64,000 nt of DNA from Escherichia coli. GTDB taxonomy: Bacteria > Pseudomonadota > Gammaproteobacteria > Enterobacterales > Enterobacteriaceae. Made by a program: the position numbers and the translations under genes. Every line of letters begins with the position of its first letter. Positions within the stretch are counted from its first letter, which is position 1. This document shows, one piece after another, positions 337-34,812 of the stretch. The notes under the pieces are model-generated. The model made no database searches and was not told where the DNA came from. It worked only from the letters and a program-made list of their open reading frames with translations. The stretch is taken from the NCBI RefSeq assembly GCF_016026235.1, contig NZ_CP065613.1; one strand, given 5' to 3'.

Positions 337-397
337 GTTTTGTCTGGCTTATCGCTGGCAAACTGTCTGAAATCGCAGCAATAAGGACTCATCCGCC

Positions 398-3859: not shown

Positions 3860-3862
3860 AAA

Positions 3863-3965
3863 TTGCCTGATGCGCTACGCTTATCAGGCCTACATAATTT
3901 CTGCAATATATTGAATTTGGAAGAATTTGTAGGCCGGATAAGGCGTTTACGCCGCATCTGGCATA
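3863..3965. repeat. REP/BIME palindromic units
   Basis: Inverted copies of the REP consensus (GCCTGATGCGCTACGCTTATCAGGCCTAC … GTAGGCCGGATAAGGCGTTTACGCCGCATC) downstream of avtA. Confidence 0.8.
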
Positions 3966-4009
3966 AACAAAGCGCACTATTCCGGCGTTGAGAAACGCCG
4001 GAAAACGTT

Positions 4010-4489: not shown

Positions 4490-4726
4490 TCCTTTGCACT
4501 AAAACAGCAGAGTGCCAGAGAGCGCGTCCCTACTGCTTTGATCCAACGAAGGAAATGTTAAAGTTTTGGCACTTGTCCAAAGCGTTATGTGATCGCGCCC
4601 TGGTCGTCCCTGACAGTAAACCCCAGTTCATTAGAAATAGCCTGCGCGGTTTCACGCAGAGGTTTCAGGAGATTTTTCTCTCCCACCTGTTTCAGACGTG
4701 ATGTCGAAAGCGAAATCGACACGGCA

Positions 4727-5542
4727 CTACGAATTGATATGTTCCTTGCTGTAACGCCGCTTCCACGCTGCTGGCGTTAAACCGGTGTGTTTGCGAAAAA
4801 TCTGCCGGAAATAGCCAACGTCATTAAACCCGCACAACGCCGCCACTTCCGTGAGCGATCGCGCTTCGCTAATTAACAGCTTTTCGGCTTCGCGCACCCG
4901 CTGGCGATGGATTGCTTCTGTTAACGTCAGATGAAACACCCACCGGTAGACGCGCCCAAGATAATCGGCATTGCAGTACAGCTCGCGGGCCAGAAGCGCC
5001 GTAGAAAGCGGGCGATGATATTGCGTGCGGATCAGTTTCTGCGCTTTCCAGGCAAGGGTGGTGCCTGCGCCATCGGCCTGTTCATCAAGACGCGCGTCAC
5101 GGGTGAGCTGCTGCAAAATGAGCAGCACAATAAACTCCAGCGCCGGAGTGCGTTGATGCTTTTCCTGTTCGCTTAAGAACTGGCGAAACAGGGCCACCAG
5201 CGCCTGCGGATCGACAACCTTCGTTTGTTGCGGCACGCTAAGATGAGTAAGCCAGCGAGGGTCGTTGTCCGGCGCTTTAACCTCAAAATGCAGCCAGTAA
5301 AATTTGAGATCGGCGGGAAAATCCTCCACCCCAACATGTTGTCGGTTCGGCCAGAGTAATAAACTCTCTCCCGCATCGACCAGAAATATCCGTTCTTCTT
5401 CCTGAATCGTTAATCGACCTTTTTCGACAAAGATAATTTCCCATGACTCCAGCCGCCTTGCAGGATGCCTCCCTACGCCACGGGAAATAAATAATCCACC
5501 ATTTTGCACTTTAATCGGTAACGTCATGGATAATTCGAGCAT
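4727..5542 (-). CDS. AraC/XylS-family transcriptional regulator (cupin sensor domain plus C-terminal HTH)
   Basis: 271-aa ORF with a C-terminal AraC-type HTH signature (…TEVAALCGFNDVGYFRQIFRKHTGLTPAAWKR); divergent from the adjacent transporter gene. Confidence 0.8.
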   Translation of the reverse strand: MLELSMTLPIKVQNGGLFISRGVGRHPARRLESWEIIFVEKGRLTIQEEERIFLVDAGESLLLWPNRQHVGVEDFPADLKFYWLHFEVKAPDNDPRWLTHLSVPQQTKVVDPQALVALFRQFLSEQEKHQRTPALEFIVLLILQQLTRDARLDEQADGAGTTLAWKAQKLIRTQYHRPLSTALLARELYCNADYLGRVYRWVFHLTLTEAIHRQRVREAEKLLISEARSLTEVAALCGFNDVGYFRQIFRKHTGLTPAAWKRRYSKEHINS

Positions 5543-5591
5543 TGATATGTAATTTCCCGCTTATTCATTAATGATTAAACACATTACCTTT

Positions 5592-5604
5592 TGATTATTA
5601 ATCA
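5592..5604. promoter_or_regulatory. Perfect 13-bp palindrome TGATTATTAATCA in the divergent promoter region (candidate operator)
   Basis: Seen directly in the 225-bp AT-rich spacer between the AraC-family gene and the GPH transporter gene; a second TTAATGATTAA half-palindrome lies about 25 bp upstream. Confidence 0.3.
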
Positions 5605-5767
5605 AAAATATTAATTTCACCTGATCCATTTCACACTTTTAAATTCAGGTCGGAATCGTCACCTTTTTTTACTCTTTTCTCGCCTTGTTGATATTCCCGT
5701 TCACGGCAGAATTAATCAGGTCATTTCAATAAAACTAAAAATTGCTCCCTATTCACGAGGAATATCT

Positions 5768-7168
5768 ATGACCTCTACACCGATTACTACCGCTGATATC
5801 GCTAAAGGTAAAATTGACGATGCGTTATCTGTACGGGAAAAAATAGGCTACGGCCTGGGTGACGCAGGCGGCACCGTAATAACTTGCCTGATCATGAATT
5901 TTCTCACCTTTTTCTACACCGACGTTTTTGGATTAACTCCGGCGCTGGTTGGCACGCTGTTTATTGCACTGCGCGTGTTTGATGCCATCTCCGACCCGGT
6001 GATGGGCGTCATTGCCGACCGGACGCAAAGTCGCTGGGGGCGCTTTCGCCCGTGGCAGCTATGGATTGCCATTCCCATCGGCATTATCGGCATCCTGACG
6101 TTCACCGTGCCAGATGCCAGCATGGGAGTAAAAATCGCCTGGGCGTTCGGTACTTACCTGCTCCTTTCAGTCGGTTATACCGCCATCAACGTACCGTACT
6201 GCGCGCTGATCAACACCATGACCACCCGCCACAATGAAGTGATCTCCTGCCAGTCCTGGCGATTCGTTCTCTGTGGCGTAGCGGGATTTCTGGTTTCGGT
6301 AGGCTTACCGTGGATGGTAGATCTCTTCGGTCAGGGTAATGCCGCGCGCGGCTATCAATTGGGCGTCGGCGTGCTGTGCGCCATTGCCGTGGTGATGTTC
6401 CTGTGCTGTTTTTTCTGGGTTCGTGAACGGGTGCCACTCTCCACAATGGGGAAATTTACCCTGCGCGAACATCTTGCCGAGCTGCGGAACAACGACCAAC
6501 TGCTGCTGATGCTGGTCATGTCTTTCCTGCTGATTAACGTCTTTAACATTCGCGGCGGTGGGTATATGTACTTCATTACCTACGTCTTACAAGGCAGTAC
6601 GGGCTACACGTCGCTGTTCTTCACCATGGTCACCTTCGCCTCCATTATCGGCTCGGTGATTGTCAGCCCGTTAACGCGGCGTTTCGATACCGTCAAAATT
6701 TACTACTACACCAACCTGCTCCTCGCTGCGCTGGCGGTGTTGATGTGGTTCCTGCCCTCCGGCCCGGCTTATCAAACGCTGTGGCTGGCGGTGATCCTCG
6801 GTAATGGCGTAATTCTTGGCTTCACATTGCCACTGCACTTCTCATTGATGGCCTTTGCCGATGACTACGGCGAGTGGAAAACCCGCGTACGTTCTTCCGG
6901 CATGAACTTCGCCTTCAATCTGTTTTTCATCAAGCTGGCCTGGGCCTCCAGCGCCGGGATCATCAGCCTGCTGTTTATTTTTGTCGCCTACCAGCCAGGC
7001 GTGGAAAACCAGACCACCAGTTCGCTTGGCGGGATCGCGGCGATGGAAACATTACTGCCTGCGCTATTCCACCTGCTGCTGGCAGGGGCGATCCGCTTTT
7101 GCAAACTCAATAATCCTATGATGTCACGCATAGCTACCGACCTGCGTCAGCGTCATGTACAGCCTTAA
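5768..7168 (+). CDS. Glycoside-pentoside-hexuronide (GPH/MelB-like) cation symporter
   Basis: 466-aa ORF with about 12 predicted hydrophobic helices and the GPH N-terminal signature ([12 protein letters not shown] … [25 protein letters not shown]); resembles the YicJ/MelB family. Confidence 0.8.
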
Positions 7169-7178
7169 GGAGCACAAG

Positions 7179-9158
7179 ATGAACATTTCGGAAGTCGATC
7201 TGCATAAACTGACGGTCAGCGATCCGTTCCTCGGTCAGTACCAACAACTGGTCCGCGACGTGGTGATTCCTTATCAGTGGGATGCCTTGAACGATCGTAT
7301 CCCAGAAGCGGAACCCAGCCATGCGATTGAAAACTTTCGCATTGCCGCCGGACTTCAGGAGGGTGAATTTTACGGGATGGTGTTTCAGGACAGCGACGTC
7401 GCCAAATGGCTGGAAGCGGTAGCCTGGTCGCTGTGCCAGAAGCCGGACGCCGAACTGGAAAAAACCGCCGACGAGGTAATCGAACTGATCGCCTCCGCCC
7501 AATGCGAAGACGGCTATCTCAATACTTACTTTACGGTAAAAGCACCCGAAGAACGCTGGAGCAATCTGGCGGAGTGTCATGAACTTTACTGCGCAGGTCA
7601 TCTGATTGAAGCCGGAGTCGCCTTCTTCCAGGCCACGGGAAAACGGCGCTTGCTGGGGGTCGTTTGCCGCCTGGCCGATCATATCGACAGCGTATTTGGT
7701 CCAGATGAAAGTAAGTTACACGGTTATCCTGGTCACCCGGAAATTGAACTGGCACTAATGCGCCTGTATGAAGTGACTGAAGAGCCGCGCTACCTGGCGC
7801 TGACGAACTATTTTGTCGAACAGCGTGGTGCGCAACCGCACTATTACGACCAGGAATATGAAAAGCGCGGGCAGACATCGCACTGGCACACCTACGGCCC
7901 GGCGTGGATGGTGAAAGACAAAGCCTACAGCCAGGCACATTTGCCCCTTGCGCAACAGCAAACCGCCATCGGTCACGCGGTACGTTTTGTCTATCTGATG
8001 ACCGGCGTCGCGCATCTCGCGCGTTTAAGTCACGATGACAGCAAGCGTCAGGACTGCCTGCGGCTGTGGAACAATATGGCCCAGCGTCAGTTATATATTA
8101 CCGGCGGCATTGGCTCGCAAAGCAGCGGCGAAGCGTTCACTAGCGATTACGATCTGCCGAATGACACGGTATACGCTGAAAGTTGCGCCTCCATCGGCCT
8201 GATGATGTTTGCCCGACGAATGCTGGAAATGGAAGGCGACAGTCAATATGCCGATGTGATGGAGCGCGCACTGTACAACACCGTGCTCGGCGGCATGGCG
8301 CTGGATGGCAAACATTTCTTCTATGTGAATCCGCTGGAAGTACATCCAAAATCGCTGAAATTCAACCATATCTACGATCACGTTAAACCGATCCGCCAGC
8401 GTTGGTTTGGCTGCGCTTGTTGTCCGCCAAATATCGCCCGCGTGCTGACCTCGATTGGTCATTATCTCTACACGCCGCGTGAAGATGCGTTGTATATCAA
8501 CATATACGCAGGAAACAGCATGGAAGTGCCGGTAGAAAATGGCACGCTGCGCCTGCGGGTTAGCGGGAACTATCCGTGGCAGGAGCAGGTGACGATTGCG
8601 GTTGAATCGCCCCAGCCGGTACGTCATACGCTGGCTTTACGTCTGCCGGACTGGTGCACACAGCCGCAGATCATATTGAATGGGGAAGAGGTCGAGCAGG
8701 ATATTCGTAAAGGGTATTTGCACATTACCCGCGAATGGCAGGAGGGCGATACGCTGAATCTGACTTTGCCGATGCCGGTACGCCGCGTTTACGGTAACCC
8801 GCTGGTGCGTCACGTCGCCGGAAAAGTGGCGATTCAGCGCGGCCCGCTGGTGTATTGCCTGGAACAGGCCGACAACGGCGAGTCACTGCATAATCTGTGG
8901 CTGCCCACCGATGCGCCATTTACGACATTTGAAGGCAAGGGATTGTTTAGCCATAAGATCTTAATCCAGGCACCGGGTTACCGGTATGAACAGAGCAATC
9001 CAGAGCAGCAACCGCTGTGGCATTACGACAGCGCGCCAGCCAAACGCCAGCCGCAAACTCTGACCTTTATCCCGTGGTTTAGCTGGGCTAACCGGGGCGA
9101 AGGCGAAATGCGGATCTGGGTGAATGAGGAAAAGCATCGCCATCCGGAGGTTGGATAA
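7179..9158 (+). CDS. Glycoside hydrolase family 127-like protein (DUF1680, beta-L-arabinofuranosidase family)
   Basis: A start at ATG 7179 is preceded by an AAGGAG RBS; the ORF-track start at 7155 overlaps the transporter stop. The 659-aa product contains a Cys-rich CACCPPN motif of the kind found in GH127 enzymes. Confidence 0.7.
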   Translation: MNISEVDLHKLTVSDPFLGQYQQLVRDVVIPYQWDALNDRIPEAEPSHAIENFRIAAGLQEGEFYGMVFQDSDVAKWLEAVAWSLCQKPDAELEKTADEVIELIASAQCEDGYLNTYFTVKAPEERWSNLAECHELYCAGHLIEAGVAFFQATGKRRLLGVVCRLADHIDSVFGPDESKLHGYPGHPEIELALMRLYEVTEEPRYLALTNYFVEQRGAQPHYYDQEYEKRGQTSHWHTYGPAWMVKDKAYSQAHLPLAQQQTAIGHAVRFVYLMTGVAHLARLSHDDSKRQDCLRLWNNMAQRQLYITGGIGSQSSGEAFTSDYDLPNDTVYAESCASIGLMMFARRMLEMEGDSQYADVMERALYNTVLGGMALDGKHFFYVNPLEVHPKSLKFNHIYDHVKPIRQRWFGCACCPPNIARVLTSIGHYLYTPREDALYINIYAGNSMEVPVENGTLRLRVSGNYPWQEQVTIAVESPQPVRHTLALRLPDWCTQPQIILNGEEVEQDIRKGYLHITREWQEGDTLNLTLPMPVRRVYGNPLVRHVAGKVAIQRGPLVYCLEQADNGESLHNLWLPTDAPFTTFEGKGLFSHKILIQAPGYRYEQSNPEQQPLWHYDSAPAKRQPQTLTFIPWFSWANRGEGEMRIWVNEEKHRHPEVG

Positions 9159-9262
9159 GGCGCTCGCGCCGCATCCAACGTAGGGAGCACATTGCCTGAT
9201 GCGACGCTTAATACGTCTTATCAGGCATACGAGTCGGTGCGAGAGCGTAGGCCAGCCGCACC
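9159..9262. repeat. REP-like palindromic units
   Basis: GCCTGATGCGACGCTTAATACGTCTTATCAGGCATAC and flanking GC-rich inverted repeats between the GH127-like gene and yiaT. Confidence 0.6.
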
Positions 9263-9278
9263 GACATCCACCGGTGAA

Positions 9279-10019
9279 TTAAAAACGCCAGCTCACGCCG
9301 GTGACAAAGGTAAAACTCTCATTACGATCAATCATCGGGCTGTCGGTAACCTCTTCCGGCAGCTCGCTGTATCCTGCGCTCGCCATCAATACGACGTGCT
9401 CTCCTATCGGGTATTTTGCCGTCAGGCTGACATAGGGCACCCAGGCATCCTGCGCGGAATAACTTGCCAGACCGCTACGACGGGACTCACTCTCTGAAAT
9501 GCCATAGTAATAGTCACTGAAATTCTCGTCATAATAGAGAACGCCCAGCGCAGGTGTCAGCGACAGACGACCTATCTGCATTTTGTGGAATACCGATAGC
9601 TCCCCCACCCAGCCGTTGCTGTTATCCAGAACGTCCGCAGCTGCAGAGGCTTTCACGGTTCCCCAACGCTCGTGGTGATACCAGGCAACCCCCGCCATAG
9701 CCGTACTATCACGCTTATCAAGCTGTTGCATGACATAATCGTCATTATCGGCAGGGTCAAATTCCAGCGGCATCCAGGATGCGGTCAGGCTAAGTTCATT
9801 TTTTTCACTTTGCGACAGAATAAAACCTAACGTGGTCTGACGAACATAAAAAGTATCACCTTCATAGCTAATCAGCGGAATTGCCTTTGTATTTTCATTA
9901 TAACCGCGATAAGGTGATTCATTATAAGCCGCACCGGCACCAATGGATAATTCAGGAGCAGTTGCGCTTGCCATAAAAGGCAACGCAAATAACGCCACAA
10001 TATTGCGGTTAATTAACAT
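9279..10019 (-). CDS. yiaT: MipA/OmpV-family outer-membrane protein
   Basis: 246-aa ORF with a signal peptide (MLINRNIVALFALPFMASATA) and a C-terminal aromatic residue (…GVSWRF) typical of beta-barrels; length and position match YiaT. Confidence 0.8.
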   Translation of the reverse strand: MLINRNIVALFALPFMASATAPELSIGAGAAYNESPYRGYNENTKAIPLISYEGDTFYVRQTTLGFILSQSEKNELSLTASWMPLEFDPADNDDYVMQQLDKRDSTAMAGVAWYHHERWGTVKASAAADVLDNSNGWVGELSVFHKMQIGRLSLTPALGVLYYDENFSDYYYGISESESRRSGLASYSAQDAWVPYVSLTAKYPIGEHVVLMASAGYSELPEEVTDSPMIDRNESFTFVTGVSWRF

Positions 10020-10142
10020 GTCCGGTATTCCATTTTAAAATAAGATAAAAAAGAGTCGGCATAGTAATGCTTACAATTTCTCCGGTGCAAGATTCATATT
10101 TATATAGTAATATATAAAATTATATATAATTGGGCTGTTGCG

Positions 10143-11117
10143 ATGACAAAATTACAACTTAAGTACCGGGAGTTAAAAATTATCTCGGTAATCGCTGCCA
10201 GTGAAAATATCAGCCATGCCGCGACTGTACTTGGCATCGCACAGGCCAACGTCAGCAAATACCTTGCTGATTTTGAATCAAAAGTGGGTTTAAAAGTCTT
10301 TGACCGAACCACCCGGCAGCTGATGCTCACACCTTTTGGTACCGCGCTGTTACCGTACATCAACGACATGCTGGACAGAAACGAGCAGCTTAATAATTTT
10401 ATTGCAGATTATAAGCATGAGAAACGTGGTCGGGTCACCATCTACGCCCCAACCGGCATAATTACCTATTTATCCAAACATGTAATCGATAAAATTAAAG
10501 ATATCGGTGATATCACCTTATCGCTAAAAACCTGCAATCTTGAGCGTAATGCCTTTTATGAAGGCGTCGAATTTCCTGATGATTGTGATGTTTTAATCAG
10601 CTATGCCCCACCAAAAGATGAATCGCTGGTTGCCAGTTTTATTACCCAATATGCCGTAACCGCTTATGCCAGCCAGCGCTATCTTGAGAAACATCCCATT
10701 AGCCGTCCTGACGAACTCGAACATCACTCCTGTATTTTGATCGACTCGATGATGATCGACGACGCGAATATCTGGCGCTTCAACGTCGCTGGGAGTAAAG
10801 AGGTGCGGGATTATCGCGTGAAGGGAAATTACGTTTGCGACAACACGCAATCGGCGCTGGAGCTGGCACGAAATCACCTGGGGATTGTGTTTGCGCCAGA
10901 CAAAAGTGTGCAGAGCGATCTGCAAGACGGCACGCTGGTGCCCTGCTTTCAGCACCCGTATGAATGGTGGCTGGATCTGGTGGCTATCTTCCGTAAACGG
11001 GAATACCAGCCCTGGCGGGTCCAGTATGTGCTGGATGAAATGCTGCGTGAAATTCGCCACCAGCTTGCTCAGTCGCAGCAACTGCGGCCTGAACAAGCGG
11101 CGGAAAGCGAAGATTAA
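10143..11117 (+). CDS. yiaU: LysR-family transcriptional regulator
   Basis: 324-aa ORF with an N-terminal LysR HTH; divergent from yiaT across an AT-rich spacer. Confidence 0.85.
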
Positions 11118-12250
11118 TGATCGAGATAAAGGTAATGCACCCAGCTGGTCATGCGTAATAACACTTTGCGCATCACCGAGACATGGCTGAAATGATCAGA
11201 GTAGACCGCCACCTGGGCGTAAATACCGTCTGGTAAAGCGCTCAAATCAGTGTGCTCATTCAGTTCAATGGTCGCGATAACGCCATCTGAACCCGGCGCT
11301 GTGTTTAACGTCTGTAAGGTGCCGGTCGACTGATAAGCTCCGCTGGGAACAGCTGGACTAATGGCTGCCAGCTTACCGCTGAACACTTTGCCTGGCAGAG
11401 CGTTAAATACCACTTCCGCATCATCGCCGGGAGCCAGGCGCAGCAAGGAGTTCTGACGGAACTGCGCCACGATTTGTCGTTTCTGATCGGGTATAAACAC
11501 CATCACCGGACGTAGCGGCAGCGACGCGGCATAGGTACCCGGACGAATCAGCACCTGGGTCACATAACCATCGCTCGGCGCACGCACTATCGTCTGCTCA
11601 AGGTTATATTTTGCTTCCGCGAGCTGCGCTTTCAGGCTGGCGATTTGAGAATGTTCACCCAGCACCAGGCTATCCAGCTGGCTCTGGATCTGTTTTTGTT
11701 CCGCCGCTGATGACTTCACGGAGGCTTCCTGCGCCAGATAATTTTGCCGCGCCACATCGATATCGCGTTCTGAAAACGGGTTTACTTTCGCCTGGCTGCC
11801 GCGTGCGTAACGCTGATACTCTTTAGCGAATTTATCCCGCGTGGCCTTTGCCTGCTGAGTATTCGCCGCCATCTCATCTAACTCTGCGCCCAACGCCCGC
11901 TGTTTATGTTCTGCGGTAACGATATCCGCCATCAGCCGATCCACCCGCGCCTGATAACGCGTCGGGTCCAGTCGAAATAGCACTTCACCTTTTTTAATCA
12001 GCGTATTTTTCTTATCCGTCACTTCAATCACCACACCAGTCACCTGTGGGACAACAGGAATAGAAATAACCGCTTTTTGCGCTTTAAAGGTATACGGATG
12101 GTTATAGTTCATTAACAGAATTAGACCGCTGACAATAAATATTCCACCCAGGGCCGCTGTGGGAATGGTCCATTTATTTACGGGAATTTTGAAGATCTTA
12201 AACATTGCCCATGCAAAAGCCACATAGGTCAAAATAATCAGTAAATCCAT
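11114..12250 (-). CDS. yiaV: HlyD-family membrane-fusion-like inner-membrane protein
   Basis: 378-aa ORF with one N-terminal transmembrane helix and a long coiled-coil region; paralog of the ORF at 20176..21312. Confidence 0.8.
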
Positions 12251-12255
12251 AAGTA

Positions 12256-12579
12256 TTACTCGGCAGAAGAGGATTTGATGTCGGCGAGCTGTTTCTCCAG
12301 CCCGGCAATGCGCTGTTGCAGTTGCATAACGGATGAATCATGGCTTTGCATTCCCCATCCCCGCTCCGGGCGGTAAAGCGTGGCCCAAATCCACAAAAAC
12401 GGCCAGATAACATGTAACGTAAAAAGACTCACCCAACCAGCAACATGAATGGCGTCGGCATGAGGATGATTACGTTTTTTAGCAATCAGGTAGGGAATAT
12501 CATGTAAAATAATAATCCCATAAAATATCACCAGAAATACAAAAATAAGCACTCCCAGCGCAAAATAGTCTAGGAACAT
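12256..12579 (-). CDS. yiaW: Small inner-membrane protein (DUF3302 family)
   Basis: Start chosen at the internal Met ([13 protein letters not shown]…) by alignment with the paralog at 21315..21677; two transmembrane helices followed by a C-terminal coiled coil. Confidence 0.7.
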
Positions 12580-12989
12580 ATTTCCCTCAAAGAATATAAA
12601 AAAGAACAATTAACGCATATTATGAAATGCCATGATGCAGTGCAATTTCCTTATTTATATAACGACATATTGTTTTTATATACTTTCTGAAGTGTGCTGC
12701 GTGGCTTTTCAACAGGTCGAGGTTTATCATATTGAAATAATGGAACTATTGACCAAGCTAATGAATAACTCCAGTAAAACATCCACAGTACAGATAAAGC
12801 GTATTAAACCTTCAATTATCTACCGTTTATTGCTGATTGGCCTCGAAACGCCACTGGTGATTTACGGCCTGGTTTGCCCGCTCACCATCGAAACGCGAGA
12901 TTAAACTCCTGGCAAAACACGCCCCAGAAACGCACTTCTGTTGGCGTAGTCTGGGTTATTGCGCACGTAGGTTTAAAACGTAAATTGTA

Positions 12990-13095
12990 ACAACGTGCGC
13001 TTTGTTTATGCCGGATGCGGCGTGTACGCCTTATCCGGCCTACGGTCAGGTCCCCGTAGGCATGATAAGACGAGTAAGCGTCGCATCAGGCAATG
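12990..13095. repeat. REP/BIME palindromic units
   Basis: GCCGGATGCGGCGTGTACGCCTTATCCGGCCTAC and an inverted partner downstream of aldB. Confidence 0.75.
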
Positions 13096-13122
13096 AATAC
13101 CCAATGCGACCAGCTTCTTATA

Positions 13123-14661
13123 TCAGAACAGCCCCAACGGTTTATCCGAGTAGCTCACCAGCAGACACTTGGTTTGCTGATAATGCTCCAGCATCATCTT
13201 ATGGGTTTCGCGTCCGATGCCCGACTGTTTGTAGCCGCCAAACGCCGCATGTGCCGGGTAAGCGTGATAACAGTTGGTCCACACGCGCCCAGCCTGAATG
13301 CCGCGCCCCATCTTATAGGCCAGATTACCGTTGCGGCTCCAGACGCCCGCGCCCAAGCCATATTGCGTATCGTTCGCCAGCTCCAGAGCTTCTTCCATCG
13401 TTTTGAAGGTGGTTACCGCCAGCACCGGGCCAAAAATCTCCTCCTGGAACACGCGCATATTGTTCTGACCAAACAGAATCGTCGGTTCGAGGTAGTAGCC
13501 GTCTTTCAGTTCACCTTCCAGCAGCTTGCGCCGCCCGCCGGTGAGCACGTCTGCGCCCTCTTTTTTACCGATATCAATGTAGTTGAGGATGGTTTCCAGT
13601 TGCCCGTGAGAAACCTGCGCGCCCATTTGCGTCACGCTGTCGAGTGGGTTACCGCTGCGAATGCTTTCGACACGGCGGATGGCGCGTTCCATAAAGCGTT
13701 CGTAGATTGACTCCTGCACTAAGGCACGACTCGGACAGGTGCAAACTTCACCCTGGTTAAAGGCAAACAGTGCAAAGCCTTCCAGCGCTTTATCGAAAAA
13801 GGCATCTTCTTCATCCATCACATCAGCAAAGAAGATATTTGGCGATTTGCCGCCCAGCTCCAGCGTCACCGGAATAATGTTTTGCGTTGCGTATTGCATA
13901 ATTTGTTGGCCCACTTCCGTTGAGCCGGTAAACGCCACTTTGGCGATGCGTTTCGAGGTCGCCAGATATTCGCCAATTTCCCCACCAGCGCCATTGACCA
14001 CGTTCACCACGCCCGGCGGCAGTAAATCACCGACGATTTCCATTAGCAGCAGTACAGAAAGCGGGGTAAGACGTGCGGGTTTCAGCACCACACAGTTGCC
14101 CGCCGCCAGCGCGGGAGCCATTTTCCAGCTCGCCATCAGCAGCGGGAAGTTCCACGGGATAATCTGCCCCACCACGCCTAACGGTTCATGGAAATGATAG
14201 GCCACGGTTTCGCTATCAACTTCACTGATCCCACCTTCCTGCGCCCGAATACACGAGGCGAAATAGCGGAAATGGTCAATCGCCAGCGGTACATCCGCAG
14301 CACTGGTTTCGCGAATGGGTTTGCCGTTATCCCAGGTTTCAGCTGTCGCTAACAGCTCGAGGTTTTGTTCCATTCGATCGGCAATCTTAAACAGAATCGC
14401 CGCGCGATCCTGCACCGAGGTGTGCGCCCATTTATCTTTCACTTTGTGCGCAGCATCCAGCGCCAGATCGATGTCTCGTTTGCCCGAAGACGCCACTTCG
14501 CACAGCAGCTGCCCGGTCACCGGCGTCAGGTTCTGGTAATACTCACCATCGGCAGGGACTACCCATTCGCCACCAATAAAGTTGTCGTAGCGGGCTTTTA
14601 ACTTGAGGGGGAAACCATACTCGCCGGGCTTAATCTGTGCTGAAGGGGGATTATTGGTCAT
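13123..14661 (-). CDS. aldB: Aldehyde dehydrogenase B
   Basis: The 558-aa ORF-track ORF was trimmed to the Met giving [19 protein letters not shown]… (512 aa), matching AldB; ALDH catalytic Cys region present. Confidence 0.9.
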
Positions 14662-14825
14662 GATCATCTCCTTGCGGTGTGAGGTATAACAAGGGTAGAC
14701 GTGACTGGCGAAATCTTCGCCAGCCGGTAACAGCTTTACGACAGCTATCACGAATTTACGGGCAAGGATTACAGAGATAGTTGAAAAAGCGGCTGACAAT
14801 TTGCCAGCCGTTGTTGGAATGATGA

Positions 14826-15977
14826 TTACATTGCGGCGCGATAAATCGCCACAATTTCTTCGTGAGTTGCCTGGGTCGGGTTAGTAAAGCCACAGGCATC
14901 TTTCAGGGCATTAGTCGCCAGAACCGCGAAATCTTCTTCTTTCACGTTCAGGTCACGCAGGCCTGCCGGGATATTCACTTTCTTCGCCAGTTCACGGATG
15001 GCATTGATGCACGCTTCTGCGCCTTCCGCGTCATTTTTGCCTGTCACGTTAACGCCCATGGCAGCAGCGCAGTCACGCAGACGCGCAGCAGCGACTTTGC
15101 TGTTGAACACCTGAACGTGCGGCAGCAGAACAGCATTACATACACCGTGTGGCAGGTTGTAGAAACCTCCCAGCTGGTGTGCCATCGCATGAACATAACC
15201 AAGAGATGCGTTGTTGAACGCCATACCAGCGAGGAACTGGGCATAAGCCATTGCTTCACGCGCTTTAGCATTGCTGCCATCTTCAACGGCTAATGGCAGG
15301 TTTTCGGCAATCATGGTCACCGCTTTCAGTGCGCAAGCGTCAGTGATCGGCGTTGCAGCGATAGAAACATACGCTTCGATAGCGTGTGTTAAGGCGTCCA
15401 TACCAGTGGCGGCGGTCAGTGACTTCGGCATACCGATCATCAGAGATGAGTCATTGACAGAAAGCAGCGGAGTCACGTGCTTATCAACAATCGCCATTTT
15501 GATGTGACGCGCTTCGTCGGTGATGATGCAGAAACGAGTCATTTCTGATGCTGTACCCGCAGTGGTATTGATGGCGATCATCGGCAGCTGCGGTTTTGCA
15601 GAGCGGTCAACGCCTTCATAATCACGGATATCACCACCATTGGCTGCCACCAGCGCAATACCTTTTGCACAGTCATGCGGAGAACCACCGCCTAAGGAAA
15701 TCACGCTATCGCAATTATTTTCTTTAAGTAATTTCAAACCTGCGGCGACGTTTTCCGTGGTTGGGTTAGGTTGGGTGCCATCATAAATAACGCTAAAAAT
15801 ATTGCGTTCTTCCAGTGCTTTTTGCACATCACCCGCCATACCTAATTTCGTTAACATATTGTCAGTGACAATTAATGTACGGGTAAATCCATAATCTGCC
15901 ATCATATTCATTGCATCAATCAATGAACCAGCGCCGATGACATTCACAGAAGGAATAAAGAACGTTGAAGCTGCCAT
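14826..15977 (-). CDS. yiaY: Iron-containing (group III) alcohol dehydrogenase
   Basis: 383-aa ORF of the Fe-ADH family (GGGSPHD motif); position matches yiaY. Confidence 0.88.
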
Positions 15978-26954: not shown

Positions 26955-27018
26955 GCCCCTCAGACGATTGGTACGATCGTATCAACCCGCATCTGGCTTG
27001 CGTTAGCTGGTCAATGCG

Positions 27019-27028
27019 GGGACTCCCC
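27019..27028. repeat. Target-site duplication, left copy (GGGACTCCCC)
   Basis: Directly repeated at 28323..28332, immediately outside the IS terminal inverted repeats; a 9-bp TSD is expected for IS10-group elements, and the exact boundary is ambiguous by 1 bp. Confidence 0.7.
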
Positions 27029-28322
27029 CTGAGGGATCCCCAGAAAATTTAGTAAACCATTATCATATTGGTATACCGTTGCTGTAGAACTTTCAGCCCT
27101 GCGTCAAGTGACAGTGTGTTTAGTATGAGTGGAGAATGTCGAATCACATTCTCCGCCAGTTTTAATAACGAGATGACTCGCCTGTGCTTCACTGTATTTG
27201 CCTGATATTTATGATGTATCCCTTTGTTTTCCAGGCTGAAACCGCTTAACCACATAATGATACTGGCTAATGTTGCGATCAGACTCAATACCGTGACCCG
27301 CCCGGATGAATGACTGGCACCAAACCGTAGTCCAAATCCCCAGCGAGGATTTTTTTCATCCCTGAAATTTTGCTCAATTTGCATTCTACGGCTGTATAAT
27401 TTCATTACCTGTTTTGGCGAGAACTCAGTACTGTTTGTGAAAATAAACCATGGTGATTTCCCGGCAGTACGAGCTTTAGCCGTCACCGATGGTCTGGTTG
27501 CTCTTTCCTTCGAGCGTTTAAATCTACGACCTTTAGGCTTACTTTTATAAAGATAAAAATGCCCTTCATGTTGTGCATTTTTATCTCGACCCAGCAGGCC
27601 TTCACCTAAATAAATTGCTGTCGTTGATGCTTTTGTGCCTGAGTCCGACACCTTTTCCCAGCCATTACCAACATTGTAATAATGATTGCCCAGTACCCGG
27701 CAAATATAGGTCCAGCCACGGGAGCGGAGCTGTTGGAACCATCGCCCCTGAAAACCGGCATCTGTAATAACAATGACATCAGTCCCGGGGGAAAAGCACT
27801 CAGCAAGCGATTCCAGAAAACGCTCATGTACATCTGCATTCGCTGTCTGTGATGATGGAACGACACAACTCATCAACGGTAAAGAACGCCCGTCACATGC
27901 CAGGCTTGCCCGCAAAAGCTGAAAACGAGAGGCATGATAAGCACTCCAGTCAATGAGTATCACAACACGAGACATTCCCCGCGTAATCTTTTGGGTAATT
28001 CGCTGAAAAATGGTGGAAACCTCATTTTGCAAATGTCGATTCCCCAACAGTCGATCCACCCGCTTTATTTTGTTTTTAACTGATGCCGTACCGGTTAAAT
28101 GACGCCCGATACTGGTAAGTGTGAGGGAAGCGCCATTTATTACAGCATTAGTTGCGTCAATCAGTGATTTTTGACGGTAAAGATGCAAAGGGGCCAGTAT
28201 GTTGTTAAGGAAATTTTGGCATAATGAACGTGCAGGCATAGTGGTGATCTCCTTGAAATTGTTAGCACAATCAATTAGATCACATCTCACTATGCCTGTC
28301 TTGTTTTCTGGGGATTCCTCAG
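27029..28322 (-). mobile_element. IS10-like insertion sequence (IS4 family), apparently intact
   Basis: About 1.29 kb bounded by imperfect terminal inverted repeats (left CTGAGGGATCCCCAGAAAA…, right …TTTTCTGGGGATTCCTCAG) resembling IS10 ends (CTGATGAATCCCC), with a single transposase ORF and flanking direct repeats. Confidence 0.85.
27049..28239 (-). CDS. IS4-family (IS10-group) DDE transposase
   Basis: Protein aligns from MPARSLCQNF… with the IS10 transposase as I recall it (shared LTLT…GR…NKIKR(V/I)DRLLGNRHL, YSRRMQIEQNFRDEK, HKYQANTVKHRRVIS blocks). The start was trimmed to the Met preceded by a GGAG RBS. Confidence 0.85.
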   Translation of the reverse strand: MPARSLCQNFLNNILAPLHLYRQKSLIDATNAVINGASLTLTSIGRHLTGTASVKNKIKRVDRLLGNRHLQNEVSTIFQRITQKITRGMSRVVILIDWSAYHASRFQLLRASLACDGRSLPLMSCVVPSSQTANADVHERFLESLAECFSPGTDVIVITDAGFQGRWFQQLRSRGWTYICRVLGNHYYNVGNGWEKVSDSGTKASTTAIYLGEGLLGRDKNAQHEGHFYLYKSKPKGRRFKRSKERATRPSVTAKARTAGKSPWFIFTNSTEFSPKQVMKLYSRRMQIEQNFRDEKNPRWGFGLRFGASHSSGRVTVLSLIATLASIIMWLSGFSLENKGIHHKYQANTVKHRRVISLLKLAENVIRHSPLILNTLSLDAGLKVLQQRYTNMIMVY

Positions 28323-28332
28323 GGGACTCCCC
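28323..28332. repeat. Target-site duplication, right copy (GGGACTCCCC)
   Basis: See the left copy at 27019..27028. Confidence 0.7.
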
Positions 28333-28801
28333 TGTCTGCTCGCCTAATTACTGAACAATCCACTCCCTCTACATCAATTTACCGCTGGTTGATATTCTGA
28401 AAATGTATTTTCACCGAAATAGCAACCTATAAACAATAAAAATATATAGAAGATATCATTTGTTAATTAACAAGCATTTACGTCTCTTTTTTTCGGATTT
28501 AATTGTGAAATTTTAATCATCATATTCATAAAATCAATTATCCGTAAAAATTTTTCCAGATATGGTTTCTTCCATATTTGACATTTATTAATAATCATCA
28601 TTAGAATCCACGAAAAATAATATATTCATACAAACACAGACATATTTTGAAACGAATGATACATTTTTATGATGAATGCTTAAAACAATATTTAATCGAC
28701 ACCCATCACTGTCATTAATGTAAAGCAACATAGATCACCAATAATACAATGGACAACTCTACCGGCATTGATCGCTGGTCGGAGGCAATAAGGATTTTTA
28801 C

Positions 28802-29485
28802 ATGAACTTGAAGAAGATTTTTTTCAGTGCTGTCACTGTTTCAGTTCTCTGCACATTAACGGGATGTGACTACATTGAAGAAGGCAAGCCAGAAAGTAGT
28901 TTACTGAAACAACAAGAAGAACATAACAATAAAATTGAGCTAATTGAAAAACAACAAGCACAGCTAAAGAGTCAACTGGAAACTATTCAAAAACAACAAA
29001 CTGGCATAATAACCAGTACAAAGACTTTAACTCACGTAATTAAATCCGTTAAAGAACAACAAAACACTTTTATTTTTACCGAGTTTAATCCGGCAAAAAC
29101 GAAGTATTTCATCCTGAACAATGGTTCGGTGGCTTTAGCGGGCCGAGTGTTATCTATTGACGCAACAGAGAATGGCAGTGTTATTCATATTTCACTGGTC
29201 AACTTATTAAGTATACCAATCTCAAACATTGGTTTTAATGCGACATGGGGTGGTGAAAAACCTGTCGATGCCAAAGAGTTTGCCCGGTGGCAACAATTAC
29301 TTTTCAACACATCAATGAAATCCACATTGAAATTATTACCAGGTCAATGGCAAGACATTAATTTGACACTGAAGGGTGTATCGCCGAATAACCTGGGATA
29401 TCTGAAGTTAGCCATCAATATGGAGAATATTCAGTTTGACAACCTTCCCTCTGCTGAAAATCGGCAGAAAAGAAGCAAAAAATAA
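28802..29485 (+). CDS. SadB-like inner-membrane lipoprotein (putative trimeric autotransporter biogenesis helper)
   Basis: 227-aa ORF with a lipoprotein signal peptide and lipobox (…VLCTLTGC), followed by a Q/E/K-rich coiled coil. It sits immediately upstream of the adhesin gene, as sadB does with sadA in Salmonella. The gene is AT-rich. Confidence 0.6.
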   Translation: MNLKKIFFSAVTVSVLCTLTGCDYIEEGKPESSLLKQQEEHNNKIELIEKQQAQLKSQLETIQKQQTGIITSTKTLTHVIKSVKEQQNTFIFTEFNPAKTKYFILNNGSVALAGRVLSIDATENGSVIHISLVNLLSIPISNIGFNATWGGEKPVDAKEFARWQQLLFNTSMKSTLKLLPGQWQDINLTLKGVSPNNLGYLKLAINMENIQFDNLPSAENRQKRSKK

Positions 29486-29528: not shown

Positions 29529-32500
29529 ATGAACAAAATATTTAAAGTTATCTGGAACCCTGCGACAGGGAATTATACTGTTACCAGCGAAACGGCAAAA
29601 AGCCGTGGTAAGAAATCTGGTCGCAGTAAGCTGTTAATTTCTGCCCTGGTCGCGGGTGGAATGTTTTCGTCGTTTGGGGCATTGGCGAATGCCGGGAATG
29701 ACAACGGTCAGGGTGTTGATTACGGTAGTGGATCAGCTGGCGACGGCTGGGTTGCTATAGGCAAAGGGGCGAAAGCAAATACTTTTATGAACACCAGTGG
29801 TTCCAGTACTGCTGTGGGTTATGAAGCTATAGCTGAAGGCCAATATAGCTCTGCCATCGGTTCAAAAACCCATGCGATTGGTGGTGCATCAATGGCGTTT
29901 GGGGTTAGTGCAATATCAGAAGGCGATAGAAGTATAGCACTGGGTGCCTCTTCGTATTCATTGGGCCAATACTCAATGGCCCTCGGCCGTTATTCAAAAG
30001 CATTGGGTAAATTGTCTATTGCTATGGGGGACTCTTCCAAAGCGGAAGGAGCAAACGCCATTGCGCTGGGAAATGCCACTAAAGCTACTGAGATTATGAG
30101 TATTGCTCTTGGCAACACCGCCAATGCGTCAAAAGCGTATTCAATGGCGCTGGGAGCAAGTAGCGTCGCATCTGAAGAAAACGCGATTGCCCTGGGGCGT
30201 AGCAGTGCAGCTAATGGTACTGACAGCCTCGCATTAGGCAGACTATCCGTCGCCAGCGCAGCAAACGCCATTACGATAGGTGCTGAGAGCAAAGCCGCTG
30301 AAAATGCGACGGCCGTTGGTACCAAAGCGGAGGCCAATGGACTTAATAGTATCGCGTTGGGCTCTGGGGGTATTGCAGATGCCGATAACACGATTGCTCT
30401 GGGCAATCAAAGCCTGGCAGTAGCTGCTGGTGCAATTGCCATCGGTCAGGGGAATAAAGCTGACGGCGCAAATGCTATCGCGCTGGGTAATGGTAGTGTT
30501 ACAGGTGGCGCAAATGCTATTGCTCTTGGACAAGGTAGTTATGCCGGTTTAGAAAATGGCATTGCAATTGGTGGTCAAGCCAGTGCTCAAGGGACAAATT
30601 CCGTTGCTCTGGGTGCGGGTTCTGTAGCGACTGAAGATAATTCCGTCTCTGTGGGTAACACAACAGATCAGCGAAAAATTGTCAATATGGCAGCAGGTGA
30701 TATCAGCACTAGCAGTACTGATGCCATAAATGGATCACAGCTTTATGCTATCAGTAAGTCAGTAGCGGACCGTCTTGGTGGGGGGGCTACCGTCAATGCG
30801 CAAGGTGTCGTTACTGCCCCGAATTACAGACTGAAAAATGGTATTTATGGCAATGTTGGCGATGCTTTAGCGGATCTAAACAATAACACGATACAATGGG
30901 ACTCCGTTAAAAAGGGATATAGTGCGGCACATGGTACAGATGCCACCAGCACCATCACCAACGTTAAAGCCGGCACTATTTCTGCTACCAGTACGGATGC
31001 GGTTAACGGTTCCCAACTGAAAGCTACCAATGACGATGTCGAAGCCAACACCGCCAATATCGCTACTAATACCAGCAACATTGCCACGAATACGGCAAGT
31101 ATTGCCACCAACACCACCAATATCACCAACCTGACGAATTCCGTTGGTGACCTTAAGGATGATGCCCTGCTGTGGAATGATGCTAAAAATGCATTCAGTG
31201 CAGCTCACGACCAGGATACCACCAGCAAAATCACCAACGTTAAAGATGGCGACCTGACGGCTGGCAGCACCGATGCCGTTAATGGCTCTCAGCTGAAAAC
31301 CACCAACGATGCCGTGGCGACGAATACCACCAATATCGCCACTAACACTTCCAATATTGCCACTAACACTTCCAACATCTCTACCCTGACTGAGACGGTG
31401 ACTAATCTTGGTGAGGATGCGCTGAAATGGGATAAGGACAGTGGTGTCTTCACGGCAGCACACGGCACCGAGGCCACCAGCAAAATCACCAACGTTAAAG
31501 ATGCCGACCTGACGGCTGACAGCACCGATGCCGTTAACGGCTCTCAGCTGAAAACCACCAACGATGCTGTGGCGACGAATACCACCAATATCGCCAATAA
31601 CACCTCCAATATTGCCACTAACACCACCAACATCTCTAACCTGACTGAGACGGTGACTAACCTTGGTGAAGATGCGCTGAAATGGGATAAGGACAATGGT
31701 GTATTCACGGCAGCTCATGGCAACAACGCCACCAGCAAAATCACCAACGTTAAAGATGGCGACCTGACGGCTGGCAGCACCGATGCCGTTAACGGCTCTC
31801 AGCTGAAGACCACCAACGATGCCGTGGCGACGAATACCACCAATATTGCCACTAACACCACCAACATCTCTACCCTGACTGAGACGGTGACTAATCTTGG
31901 TGAGGATGCGCTGAAATGGGATAAGGACAATGGTGTATTCACGGCAGCTCATGGCAACAACACCGCCAGCAAAATCACCAATATCCTGGACGGCACAGTC
32001 ACTGCAACCAGTTCCGATGCCATTAACGGCAGCCAGCTTTATGACTTAAGCAGCAATATCGCCAGCTACTTCGGCGGCAACGCTTCTGTGAATACTGACG
32101 GTGTGTTTACCGGTCCAACCTACAAAATCGGTGAAACAAATTATTATAACGTCGGCGATGCACTGGCTGCGATTAACTCCTCATTTAGCACGTCTCTCGG
32201 CGATGCCCTGCTTTGGGACGCTTCCGTAGATAAATTTAGTGCCAAACACGGTACTAATGGTGACGCAAGCGTGATCACTGATGTCGCAAACGGGGATGTT
32301 TCAAGCACAAGCTCTGATGCTGTGAACGGCTCGCAACTCTATACCACCAATAAGTACGTCGTAGATGCGCTGGGTGGTGGTGCCGAAGTCAATGCTGACG
32401 GCAGCATCAGTGCGCCGACTTACACTATCGCAAACGCAGATTACGATAATGTCGGTGATGCCCTGAATGCTATCGATACCACTCTTGATGACGCTCTGCT

Positions 32501-34625
32501 CTGGGATGCAGACGCCGGTGAAAATGGTGCATTTAGCGCCGCTCACGGAAAAGATAAAACTGCCAGTGTAATCACTAACGTCGCTAACGGTGCAATCTCT
32601 GCTGCCAGCAGCGACGCGATTAACGGCTCACAACTCTATACCACCAATAAGTACATCGCTGATGCGCTGGGTGGTGACGCAGAAGTCAACGCTGACGGCA
32701 CCATCACCGCACCGACTTACACCATTGCGAACGCCGAGTACAACAACGTCGGTGACGCCCTGGATGCGCTTGATGATAACGCCCTGCTGTGGGATGAGAC
32801 TGCCAACGGCGGTGCTGGAGCCTACAATGCCAGCCATGACGGTAAAGCCAGCATCATCACTAATGTCGCTAATGGCAGTATTAGTGAGGACAGCACCGAT
32901 GCAGTGAATGGTTCTCAGTTGAATGCGACGAATTTGATGATTGAGCAGAACAGCCAAATCATCAATCAGCTTGCTGGTAACACCGACACAACCTATATCG
33001 AAGAAAATGGCGCTGGTATCAACTACGTTCGTACTAACGACAACGGTTTAGCCTTTAACGATGCAAGCGCCTCTGGTGTCGGCGCTACAGCTGTAGGTTA
33101 TAACGCTGTCGCGTCTGGTGCCAGCAGCGTAGCCATTGGTCAGAACAGCAGCAGCACCGTTGATACCGGTATTGCGCTGGGTAGCAGCTCCGTTTCCAGC
33201 CGTGTGATTGCCAAAGGTTCTCGTGATACCAGCGTGTCAGAAGAAGGTGTTGTGATTGGTTATGACACCACGGATGGCGAACTGCTCGGTGCATTGTCGA
33301 TTGGTGATGATGGCAAGTACCGTCAAATTATCAACGTAGCCGATGGTTCCGAAGCCCATGACGCCGTTACGGTTCGCCAGTTGCAGAACGCTATTGGAGC
33401 GGTCGCCACTACGCCAACCAAGTACTATCACGCCAACTCAACGGCAGAAGACTCACTGGCCGTTGGTGAAGACTCGCTGGCAATGGGTGCGAAAACTGTC
33501 GTTAATGGTAATGCAGGTATTGGTATCGGTTTGAACACTCTGGTTCTGGCTGATGCGATCAACGGTATTGCTATCGGCAGTAACGCACGCGCAAACCATG
33601 CAAACAGTATTGCAATGGGTAACGGTTCTCAGACCACCCGTGGTGCACAGACTGGCTACACCGCCTACAACATGGACGCACCGCAGAACTCTGTAGGTGA
33701 GTTTTCTGTCGGTAGTGAAGACGGTCAACGCCAGATCACCAACGTCGCAGCTGGTTCAGCGGATACCGATGCGGTTAACGTGGGTCAGTTGAAAGTCACT
33801 GATGAGCGCGTAGCGCAAAATACCCAGAGCATTACTAACCTGAACAATCAGGTCACTAATCTGGATACTCGCGTTACTAATATCGAAAACGGTATTGGCG
33901 ATATCGTGACCACCGGTAGCACCAAGTACTTCAAGACCAACACCGATGGCGTAGATGCCAACGCCCAGGGTAAAGATAGCGTTGCGATTGGTTCTGGTTC
34001 CATTGCTGCCGCTGACAACAGCGTCGCTCTGGGTACAGGCTCCGTGGCCAACGAAGAAAACACGATCTCTGTGGGTTCTTCTACCAACCAGCGCCGTATC
34101 ACCAACGTAGCTGCCGGTGTTAATGCCACCGATGCGGTTAACGTGTCGCAGCTGAAATCTTCTGAAGCAGGCGGCGTTCGCTACGACACCAAAGCGGATG
34201 GCTCTATCGACTACAGCAACATCACTCTCGGTGGTGGCAACGGAGGTACGACTCGCATCAGCAACGTTTCCGCAGGTGTGAACAACAACGACGCGGTGAA
34301 CTACGCGCAGTTGAAGCAAAGCGTGCAGGAAACAAAGCAATACACCGATCAGCGCATGGTTGAGATGGATAACAAACTGTCTAAAACTGAAAGCAAGTTG
34401 AGCGGTGGTATCGCTTCTGCAATGGCAATGACCGGTCTGCCGCAGGCTTACACTCCAGGTGCCAGCATGGCTTCTATTGGTGGCGGTACTTACAACGGTG
34501 AATCGGCAGTTGCTTTAGGTGTATCGATGGTGAGCGCCAATGGTCGTTGGGTCTACAAATTACAAGGTAGTACCAATAGCCAGGGTGAATACTCCGCCGC
34601 ACTCGGTGCCGGTATTCAGTGGTAA
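29529..34625 (+). CDS. ehaG: Trimeric autotransporter adhesin (YadA-like head, repetitive stalk, C-terminal YadA anchor); EhaG/UpaG-like
   Basis: 1698-aa ORF with the extended TAA signal peptide ([18 protein letters not shown]…), a head of repeated GxxAxAxG/SIALG motifs, neck motifs (NSVSVG…[10 protein letters not shown]…DAVNVSQL), DALLWD…FSAAHG stalk repeats and a C-terminal anchor ending …AALGAGIQW. The symbol is assigned by locus position between yibL and lldP; upaG is equally possible. Confidence 0.85.
30890..32040 (+). repeat. Tandem 240-252-bp coding repeats inside the adhesin stalk (about five near-identical copies)
   Basis: Unit …[17 protein letters not shown]…[42 protein letters not shown]… recurs with unit starts at about 30893, 31160, 31417, 31669 and 31909; degenerate copies continue to about 32800. 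Confidence 0.85.
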
Positions 34626-34760: not shown

Positions 34761-34779
34761 GCTCCGGGTCAACAATCTA

Positions 34780-34812
34780 AGGGCAATTCTCTGATGAGGA
34801 TTGCCCTTTTCT
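34780..34812 (+). terminator. Rho-independent terminator downstream of the adhesin gene
   Basis: Hairpin AGGGCAAT-(loop)-ATTGCCCT followed by TTTTCTTT. Confidence 0.6.

Follow-up and report, generated by a model that had tools for sequence, protein, structure and literature searches.

We analyzed a 64,000-nucleotide stretch of Escherichia coli DNA (RefSeq assembly GCF_016026235.1, contig NZ_CP065613.1), referred to here as the window, which carries a gene for a trimeric autotransporter adhesin (TAA) of 1698 amino acids (aa). By sequence comparison, this gene is best described as an intact EhaG-type allele of the positional orthologue EhaG/UpaG/SadA. We are highly confident that this gene and the sadB-like gene before it form a two-gene operon at a conserved enterobacterial site between the operons for mannitol (mtl) and L-lactate (lld), that the stalk of the adhesin is modular, and that the locus is an old, stable polymorphism. 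The kind of gene and its biology are already known; the window holds an allele of rare length. A first-pass annotation, made from the sequence and a list of its open reading frames (ORFs) without database searches, had placed an EhaG/UpaG-family adhesin of this length here, and the ORF was found exactly as described (Table 1).

A Pfam search of the adhesin gave four families above their cut-offs. In addition to the matches that define the signal region and the anchor in Table 1, YadA_head was found in 14 stretches (185 bits) and YadA_stalk in 13 stretches (397 bits). The protein begins with a Sec signal peptide of the extended ESPR type, and cleavage would likely occur after ...GALA. The passenger that follows consists of head, neck/connector and coiled-coil stalk modules, as seen from the Pfam matches, the neck motifs, the heptad-periodic IxxNTxx pattern and the matches to solved TAA fragments, and the C-terminus is a YadA-type anchor; this is the make-up of a type Vc autotransporter. 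The head is composed of 14-residue (42-bp) repeats, with a 42-nucleotide repeat family spaced at 84 and 126 bp, and is matched by Protein Data Bank (PDB) entries 1p9h (aa 194-324) and 3pr7 (aa 136-413). The neck motif D-A-V/I-N-G/V-S/G-Q-L occurs 11 times; the steps from one copy to the next are 276, 276, 255, 255, 234, 300, 297 and 285 bp, and two more copies lie far off. Two SadA fragments align with the C-terminal stalk, 2yo0 (aa 1281-1546, E 1e-137) and 2yo3 (aa 1421-1624, E 4e-89), and aa 1611-1698 are matched by the Hia anchor structures 3emo and 2gr7. The homologous SadA fragments are three-chain PDB entries. The extended signal peptide, YadA-like head, necks, stalk and anchor named in the first-pass annotation thus agree with the Pfam results and the 11 necks.

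The best DNA match to the window was E. coli FDAARGOS_943 (99.9% identity), in which the gene order is mtlA-mtlD-mtlR-yibT-yibL-DUF3251 (sadB-like)-[YadA-like]-lldP-lldR-lldD. The neighbors of the adhesin gene are alike in 12 further E. coli genomes. Grin et al. described the sadBA operon of Salmonella between mtl and lld, with a 44-bp gap between the two genes, and noted that the operon is deleted in K-12 (PMC3953254); the corresponding gap in the window, from the stop codon of the sadB-like gene to the adhesin start, is 43 bp. The sadB-like protein has a lipobox (LTGC) followed by Asp at position +2, and it matched PDB entry 4c47 (SadB) by phmmer with an E-value of 1.3e-67 over residues 30-227. 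Pfam DUF3251 on this protein fell below its cut-off (16.7 vs 23 bits) and an NCBIfam search with it gave no match; its identity was settled by the PDB comparison. In other genomes, the gene is annotated as "SadB/YajI family lipoprotein" or DUF3251. A lipoprotein of the SadB type aids export and trimerization of its adhesin, and the inner-membrane lipoprotein with Asp at +2 improves surface display of SadA (PMC3953254). Because the adhesin gene has the mtl-lld location and a SadB-type gene 43 bp upstream, with which it would probably be co-transcribed, we regard it as the positional orthologue of EhaG, UpaG and SadA. The protein is 89% identical to the annotated EhaG of O157:H7 86-24 and 79% identical to an annotated UpaG; these identities and the match to SadA fragments (E 1e-137) relate it to the characterized proteins. 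Domains, locus, SadB-type neighbor and protein identities all agree with the family named in the first-pass annotation.

Table 1. Features of the adhesin locus and its surroundings. Nucleotide positions are those of the window and residue numbers those of the adhesin.
Feature	Positions (nt)	Residues (aa)	Strand	Basis or remark
ISEc60 (IS4-like), 1293 bp	27029-28321			transposase ORF 27049..28290 (-) with DDE_Tnp_1 domain
Best sigma-70-like promoter match, TTGACA-18-TAGAAT, 11/12	28578..28607		+	consensus match; would serve as operon promoter
sadB-like gene, 227 aa, predicted inner-membrane lipoprotein	28802..29485		+	ORF list; PDB 4c47
Trimeric autotransporter adhesin gene, 1698 aa	29529..34625		+	ORF list, Pfam, locus, allele comparison
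ESPR	29529..29687	1-~53	+	Pfam PF13018, aa 1-48, E 2.4e-15, 57.1 bits (cut-off 25)
N-terminal YadA-like head	29688..30668	~54-380	+	YadA_head stretches (Pfam)
First neck and FGG connector	30669..30887	381-453	+	neck motif at aa 398; SadA fragment 2yny matches aa 404-457
Four tandem DALL-neck-coiled-coil units, 276/255/255/234 bp	30888..31907		+	DALL register
Unit 1		454-545		92 aa; DALL-neck-coiled coil
Unit 2		546-630		85 aa; DALL-neck-coiled coil
Unit 3		631-715		85 aa; DALL-neck-coiled coil
Unit 4		716-793		78 aa; DALL-neck-coiled coil
Three DALL-neck-FGG units (5-7)	31908..32780		+	last DALL-neck at 32781-32921
Unit 5		794-892		99 aa; DALL-neck-FGG
Unit 6		893-988		96 aa; DALL-neck-FGG
Unit 7		989-1084		96 aa; DALL-neck-FGG
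Conserved C-terminal stalk: small head inserts, two necks, coiled coil	33369..34439	1281-1637	+	SadA crystal fragments
YadA-type membrane anchor	34440..34622	1638-1698	+	PF03895, E 5.5e-19, 68.4 bits (cut-off 22.7)
Antisense ORF, 358 codons, not a gene	30876..31952		-	ORF list; codon analysis
Second codon-aligned antisense run, 252 codons	33759-34514			non-repeated 3' part; contains 194-aa ORF 33756-34340 (-)
Terminator-like hairpin, 13-pair stem then T-run	34779..34808		+	pattern match between adhesin stop and lldP; would act as terminator

The stalk contains a tandem repeat that is real and far beyond chance. Tandem Repeats Finder reported a period of 255 bp in 3.1 copies (90% matches, score 1213) at 31219-31981, an overlapping period of 234 bp, and nested periods of 21 bp at 2.4-2.6 copies. 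The protein was cut at the DALL tryptophan motif, which gave seven complete units. Units 2, 3 and 4 were 86-94% identical to each other in DNA and 80-92% in protein, whereas unit 1 was only 70-75% identical to them in DNA. The units match solved SadA fragments that comprise coiled coil, DALL and neck (2ynz, E 1e-18; 2yo2, E 7e-15; and 3zmf). In units 1-4, the DALL-to-neck part is fixed at 44 aa and the coiled-coil spacers are 48, 41, 41 and 34 aa, so that unit lengths change in steps of whole 7-aa heptads (21 bp) of the type N-I-A-T-N-T-S, or IxxNTxx; the nested 21-bp period exists because the units differ by whole heptads. The connector names DALL, FGG, HANS and neck, and the view of these heptads as anion-binding with Asn at position d, are those of daTAA and the SadA work.

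The first-pass annotation had described about five near-identical units of 80-84 aa (240-252 bp each). The tandem repeat itself held up, but the number, size and closeness of the units did not, as alignment shows one diverged unit followed by three close ones and then the opening half of a fifth. The limits it gave, 30890-32040, hold for a count of five DALL-neck modules, the fifth of which (aa 794-~840, to nucleotide ~32048) opens the DALL-neck-FGG type; units 1-4 alone occupy 30888-31907. The degenerate copies it had seen further 3' are the DALL-neck-FGG units at 31908-32780, which are 66-79% identical to one another in nucleotides.

We searched 5426 complete E. coli genomes with the gene as a DNA query and examined spread-sampled rows of the result. 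A match was present in 4158 genomes, always on the chromosome, and 1268 genomes had none. Spans of about 16 different sizes were seen among 22 spread-sampled rows aligned over the whole query. Some spans in the sampled rows were not multiples of three and were annotated as split genes. The adhesin gene was split, frameshifted or truncated in some genomes, with spans of 5233 and 3218 bp that three does not divide, and in another genome only the first 630 bp were kept. In a UTI89 record (NZ_CP064825.1), the annotation gives the sadB-like gene as a pseudogene that contains an internal stop, next to an intact adhesin gene.

The window allele was then compared with its counterparts at this locus in 13 other genomes of E. 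coli, for a set of 14 alleles. In all 13, the gene sits between the sadB-like gene and lldP, and its length was 4344, 4617, 4752, 4767, 4848 (twice), 4851, 5097, 5100, 5124, 5130, 5142 or 5463 bp. The set therefore holds 12 distinct lengths (4344-5463 bp; 1447-1820 aa), 11 of which differ from that of the window. The proposal in the first-pass annotation that length varies between strains, and that 1698 aa is one allele of a variable locus, is borne out by these data. Repeat-number change, which it had offered as the cause, accounts for much of the variation. BE2-5 has two coiled-coil units; BL21, O157 EhaG, F2_81 and E105 have three; and the window, FDAARGOS_943, AHM8C212RI, PapRG-04-4 and Z1323HEC0422 have four. 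Of these, BE2-5, BL21 and Z1323HEC0422 make a two-, three- and four-unit series on otherwise similar alleles. In UpaG-type alleles the unit number differs, and most units are 78 aa long, with variants of 71 and 76 aa.

Insertions and deletions (indels) were read, relative to the window, from a DNA alignment of ten EhaG-type alleles. Those in the stalk units were 255 bp (one unit) and 489 bp (two units, 255 + 234), and 21 bp (one heptad) was deleted in one allele and inserted in another. Head indels were 42 and 84 bp, which is one or two of the 14-aa repeats (14 or 28 aa). A few others were 3, 6 or 15 bp, and all indels were in frame. The spacers of clear coiled-coil-type units were 27, 34, 41 or 48 aa across the 14 alleles, all congruent to 6 modulo 7, and the DALL-to-neck part was 44 aa in most units (42-46).

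Copy number does not account for all of the variation, for which mosaicism must be added. The alleles are strongly mosaic, with blocks of 62-68% identity directly adjoining blocks of 98-100%. For the BL21 and O157 alleles, identity to the window was 97-99% in roughly the first 560 bp and fell to 62-65% over 30387-30977, and AHM8C212RI showed the opposite pattern. The head region (29688..30668) had blocks of 67-68% nucleotide identity in other alleles. The anchor, in contrast to the variable head and stalk units, was 100% identical in all 14 alleles, and the C-terminal stalk was 91-100% identical. The mosaic blocks therefore show that replacement of segments between alleles contributes as much as copy-number change.

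Orthologous units across alleles were closer to each other than paralogous units inside one allele. In three-unit alleles, the 85-aa unit carries the variants of window unit 2 in its 5' third and then a patchwork of unit-2 and unit-3 variants, which fits in-register recombination or gene conversion between neighboring units. An origin of the three-unit alleles by a single crossover was considered and is too simple, as the diagnostic sites form a patchwork without a single switch point. Length was constant within clones. About 25 genomes of the B lineage (BL21, REL606, B, C41/C43 and derivatives) all had a span of 4851 bp, and 13 diverse ehaG-type genomes, including O157:H7, had one 3399-bp span for query positions 1444-5097. 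Since length is constant within clones, we interpret the locus as an old, recombining allelic polymorphism whose copy number appears stable within lineages, rather than one subject to fast slippage.

A contingency locus, in which slipped-strand mispairing at high frequency gives phase or antigenic variation within a clone, would also have tandem in-frame repeats, nested 21-bp repeats at 2.4-2.6 copies, and 21-bp gains and losses between alleles, and a mechanism of this kind was proposed for badA (PMC8859334). We consider it very unlikely here. Apart from the fixed 4851 bp in the B lineage and the constant length in many ehaG-annotated strains, the units are diverged rather than identical (70-94%), and alleles that share just 68% identity in the head have kept orthologous units, which makes the duplications old. 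Neither homopolymers nor short simple-sequence tracts were reported in the gene or just upstream of it.

The first-pass annotation had also warned that the repeats may be vulnerable to assembly collapse. Units 2-4, at 86-94% identity over 234-255 bp, can mislead short-read assemblers that use small k-mers, and badA and similar repetitive TAA genes were resolved only with long reads (PMC8859334). However, a colinear gene of 5097 bp was found in 5 independently assembled complete genomes (FDAARGOS_943, EC2641, TB06052, OZ197100 and 88-3493), aligned in one piece in each at 98.0-99.9% identity. The longest exact repeat inside the gene is 69 bp, which is below ordinary read length. Each unit has its own substitutions, with 35 diagnostic sites that tell unit 2 from unit 3, and four-unit alleles occur on different backgrounds. 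Because five genomes agree and the longest exact repeat is 69 bp, collapse of the window gene appears unlikely, and we give an artefactual unit count or length, whether from a collapsed or an expanded repeat, hardly any credence. The window allele is rare, as its exact structure was found in only these 5 of the 5426 genomes. Sequence variation of upaG/ehaG has been reported (PMC7247748), and variation in repeat arrays is known for other TAAs such as BadA (PMC8859334).

The strand opposite the repeats is open for 358 codons, an ORF that the first-pass annotation had located exactly and attributed to repeat composition. The ORF is long and has an ATG start. It is also exactly codon-aligned with the sense frame, so that an antisense stop requires TTA, CTA or TCA in the sense strand. 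Only 28 of the 1698 adhesin codons are of these three kinds and none lies in codons 451-839, which leaves the antisense frame open there for 389 codons. When the codon order was shuffled, the mean longest run was 229 (standard deviation 58), giving P of about 0.015 for the observed run; a modest excess of this kind is expected, since the codon choices of one unit recur in the others. The run in other alleles was 191-480 codons long (for example 191, 269, 306, 354, 382 and 396), was cut differently, and tracked the number of units, and synonymous sense changes in related alleles make antisense stops. A Pfam search of the 358-aa product found no family. The second run, 252 codons long, falls in the 3' part of the gene, where there are no repeats, and is an artefact of the same type. 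A real overlapping protein can practically be dismissed. The ORF was rejected as a gene on the basis of its codon alignment, the lack of a Pfam match and the dependence of its length on the allele, which upholds the earlier attribution to composition.

Upstream of the sadB-like gene is an AT-rich tract (28400-28699, 22.7% GC) that holds the best promoter match. H-NS repression of upaG/ehaG has been described (PMC7247748, PMC12525524), and in the laboratory upaG escaped repression only in hns mutants (PMC12525524). The AT-rich tract fits such repression, as H-NS binds sequence of this type. The element ISEc60 is inserted in the yibL/sadB intergenic region about 480 bp before the sadB-like start codon. 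Terminal inverted repeats of 22 nucleotides mark its ends, it is flanked by an 11-bp target duplication (GGGGACTCCCC at 27018-27028 and 28322-28332), and it was found at this site in none of the 5426 complete genomes. FDAARGOS_943 has about 36 places elsewhere that match ISEc60. No consensus match to an outward promoter toward sadB was found within 28250-28321, at the end of the element, and the 469 bp between ISEc60 and the sadB-like gene, including the best promoter match, are untouched.

These observations raise the question of whether the gene is an intact but silent relic, either permanently silenced by H-NS or cut off from its regulation by the upstream insertion. The low GC content (22.7%) upstream, the derepression of upaG only in hns mutants in the laboratory (PMC12525524), the lack of the locus in 1268 of 5426 genomes and its split, frameshifted or truncated forms in some others, the sadB pseudogene in a UTI89 record, and ISEc60 480 bp upstream are all in keeping with a relic. 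On the other hand, a 5.1-kb ORF with all its domains, an anchor that is 100% identical across alleles, and indels that stay in frame argue for continuing purifying selection, and the untouched 469 bp from the element to sadB retain the best promoter match. We therefore judge a silent relic to be unlikely, and favor an intact EhaG-type adhesin in an operon with its SadB-like helper.

Several points weigh against that interpretation. RefSeq names the 99.9%-identical copy "YadA-like family protein" and not EhaG, and it is alleles of 1588 aa that are named EhaG; the NCBI name EhaG probably rests on a similarity rule. No NCBIfam model reached its cut-off with the adhesin and there was no EhaG or UpaG model among the NCBIfam hits, which were sub-threshold matches to other TAA models (Ata, Vomp, EmaA, BimA and YadA). 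The promoter and terminator are consensus matches only, and promoter-like sites were not above the shuffled expectation. ISEc60 might alter regulation in this strain, be it H-NS silencing or expression. Finally, the sequences tell neither the direction of unit gain or loss nor unequal crossing-over from replication slippage.

By analogy with SadA, UpaG and EhaG, the 1698-aa precursor would be exported by Sec via its extended signal peptide, and SadB, a trimeric inner-membrane lipoprotein, would help three chains assemble. The C-terminal anchors, each chain giving a part, would form one outer-membrane barrel with the assistance of BAM, and the passenger would be threaded through it. The product would be a long fiber with a head and then a stalk in which connectors (neck, FGG and DALL) alternate with coiled coils. 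UpaG and EhaG mediate extracellular-matrix adhesion, autoaggregation and biofilm formation (PMC7247748), and the fiber encoded here may likewise mediate matrix binding, autoaggregation and biofilm formation. The operon would probably be silenced by H-NS at the AT-rich upstream region. The stalk has modules of three nested periods, namely head repeats of 14 aa (42 bp), heptads of 7 aa (21 bp) and DALL-neck-coiled-coil units of 78-92 aa (234-276 bp). Modules gained or lost in frame and in register, together with recombinational exchange of entire segments between alleles, probably generated the many lengths seen in E. coli.

EhaG of O157:H7, which is 1588 aa long (Totsika et al. 2012, via PMC7247748), is like the window adhesin in its site between a sadB-like gene and lldP, its domain order, its 89% protein identity, its 100% identical anchor, and its unit types spaced 92, 85 and 78 aa. 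The window protein is 110 aa longer. It carries an 85-aa DALL-neck-coiled-coil unit that EhaG lacks and has 28 residues more in its head (an 84-bp indel), and its neck and FGG segment is only 66% and its head 82% identical to those of EhaG. UpaG is 1778 aa in CFT073 (PMC12525524), and a 1707-aa copy is annotated upaG in strain FCI5. It is a positional orthologue with the same sadB-like partner and tandem DALL-neck-coiled-coil units, and its anchor and C-terminal stalk are 97-100% identical to those of the window. However, overall protein identity is about 79%, with 63% in the head and 70-74% in the repeat units, and UpaG-type alleles differ in the size and number of their units as given above.

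SadA and SadB of Salmonella enterica (2yny, 2ynz, 2yo0-2yo3, 3zmf and 4c47) share with the window the operon, the lipoprotein with Asp at +2, the mtl-lld site, the C-terminal stalk (E 1e-137) and the unit architecture of coiled coil, DALL and neck. With a mass of about 147 kDa, SadA is the shorter protein (PMC7247748), and reports describe it as highly conserved within Salmonella; the locus in E. coli, by contrast, is highly polymorphic. BadA of Bartonella henselae is also a modular TAA, and the number of its repetitive neck/stalk domains varies among isolates through recombination (PMC8859334). Unlike the window adhesin, it belongs to an unrelated lineage, has much longer arrays, and has flanking pseudogene copies as recombination partners; no pseudogene copy of the adhesin was found within the 64-kb window. 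BadA varies at short range among isolates of one species, in contrast to the E. coli locus, whose length is stable within clones.

Other features of the window were noted. FDAARGOS_943 lacks window positions 9529-15829 and has IS1 there, between truncated mipA/ompV-family and L-threonine dehydrogenase-family genes; it also has one more IS1, at the place that corresponds to window ~47871. The window thus belongs to a strain that is related to FDAARGOS_943 but distinct from it. Above the gathering score, Rfam matched naRNA4 (9149-9227, +, 63 bits), the ES036/CssrF small RNA (3886-3928, -, 50 bits) and JUMPstart (62812-62850, -, 55 bits), the last of which by its position is upstream of the lipopolysaccharide (LPS) core (waa) genes. 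Positions 4727-9158, annotated from the colinear region of FDAARGOS_943, hold genes for an AraC-family regulator, a major facilitator superfamily (MFS) transporter and a glycoside hydrolase of family 127, with the remnant of an IclR-family regulator gene, and may be a strain-variable sugar-utilization islet near ysaA/avtA.

One heptad (21 bp) is roughly 1 nm of coiled coil. A further, doubtful idea is that stalk length is tuned in quantized steps, of a heptad or a 78-92-aa unit, by in-register recombination and under selection to bring the head just past the O-antigen or capsule of each strain. The rule that spacers have 27 + 7n residues, seen in 14 of 14 alleles, and the reported masking of SadA function by LPS and fimbriae (PMC7247748) fit this idea and do not test it. 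If it were true, allele length would covary with surface-polysaccharide type.

The findings hold no surprise for a specialist, and their use is practical. In annotation, the gene belongs under the sadB-linked EhaG/UpaG/SadA adhesin as an EhaG-type allele that shares an operon with its SadB-like helper, and no gene should be called for the antisense ORF. At this locus, length changes by structural quanta of 21, 42 and about 255 bp, the background is mosaic, and the polymorphism is stable within clones, a rule that serves allele typing and the judging of whether an assembly is plausible. For vaccine work on the UpaG/EhaG antigen, variation lies in the head and the stalk units, and conservation in the anchor and the C-terminal stalk.

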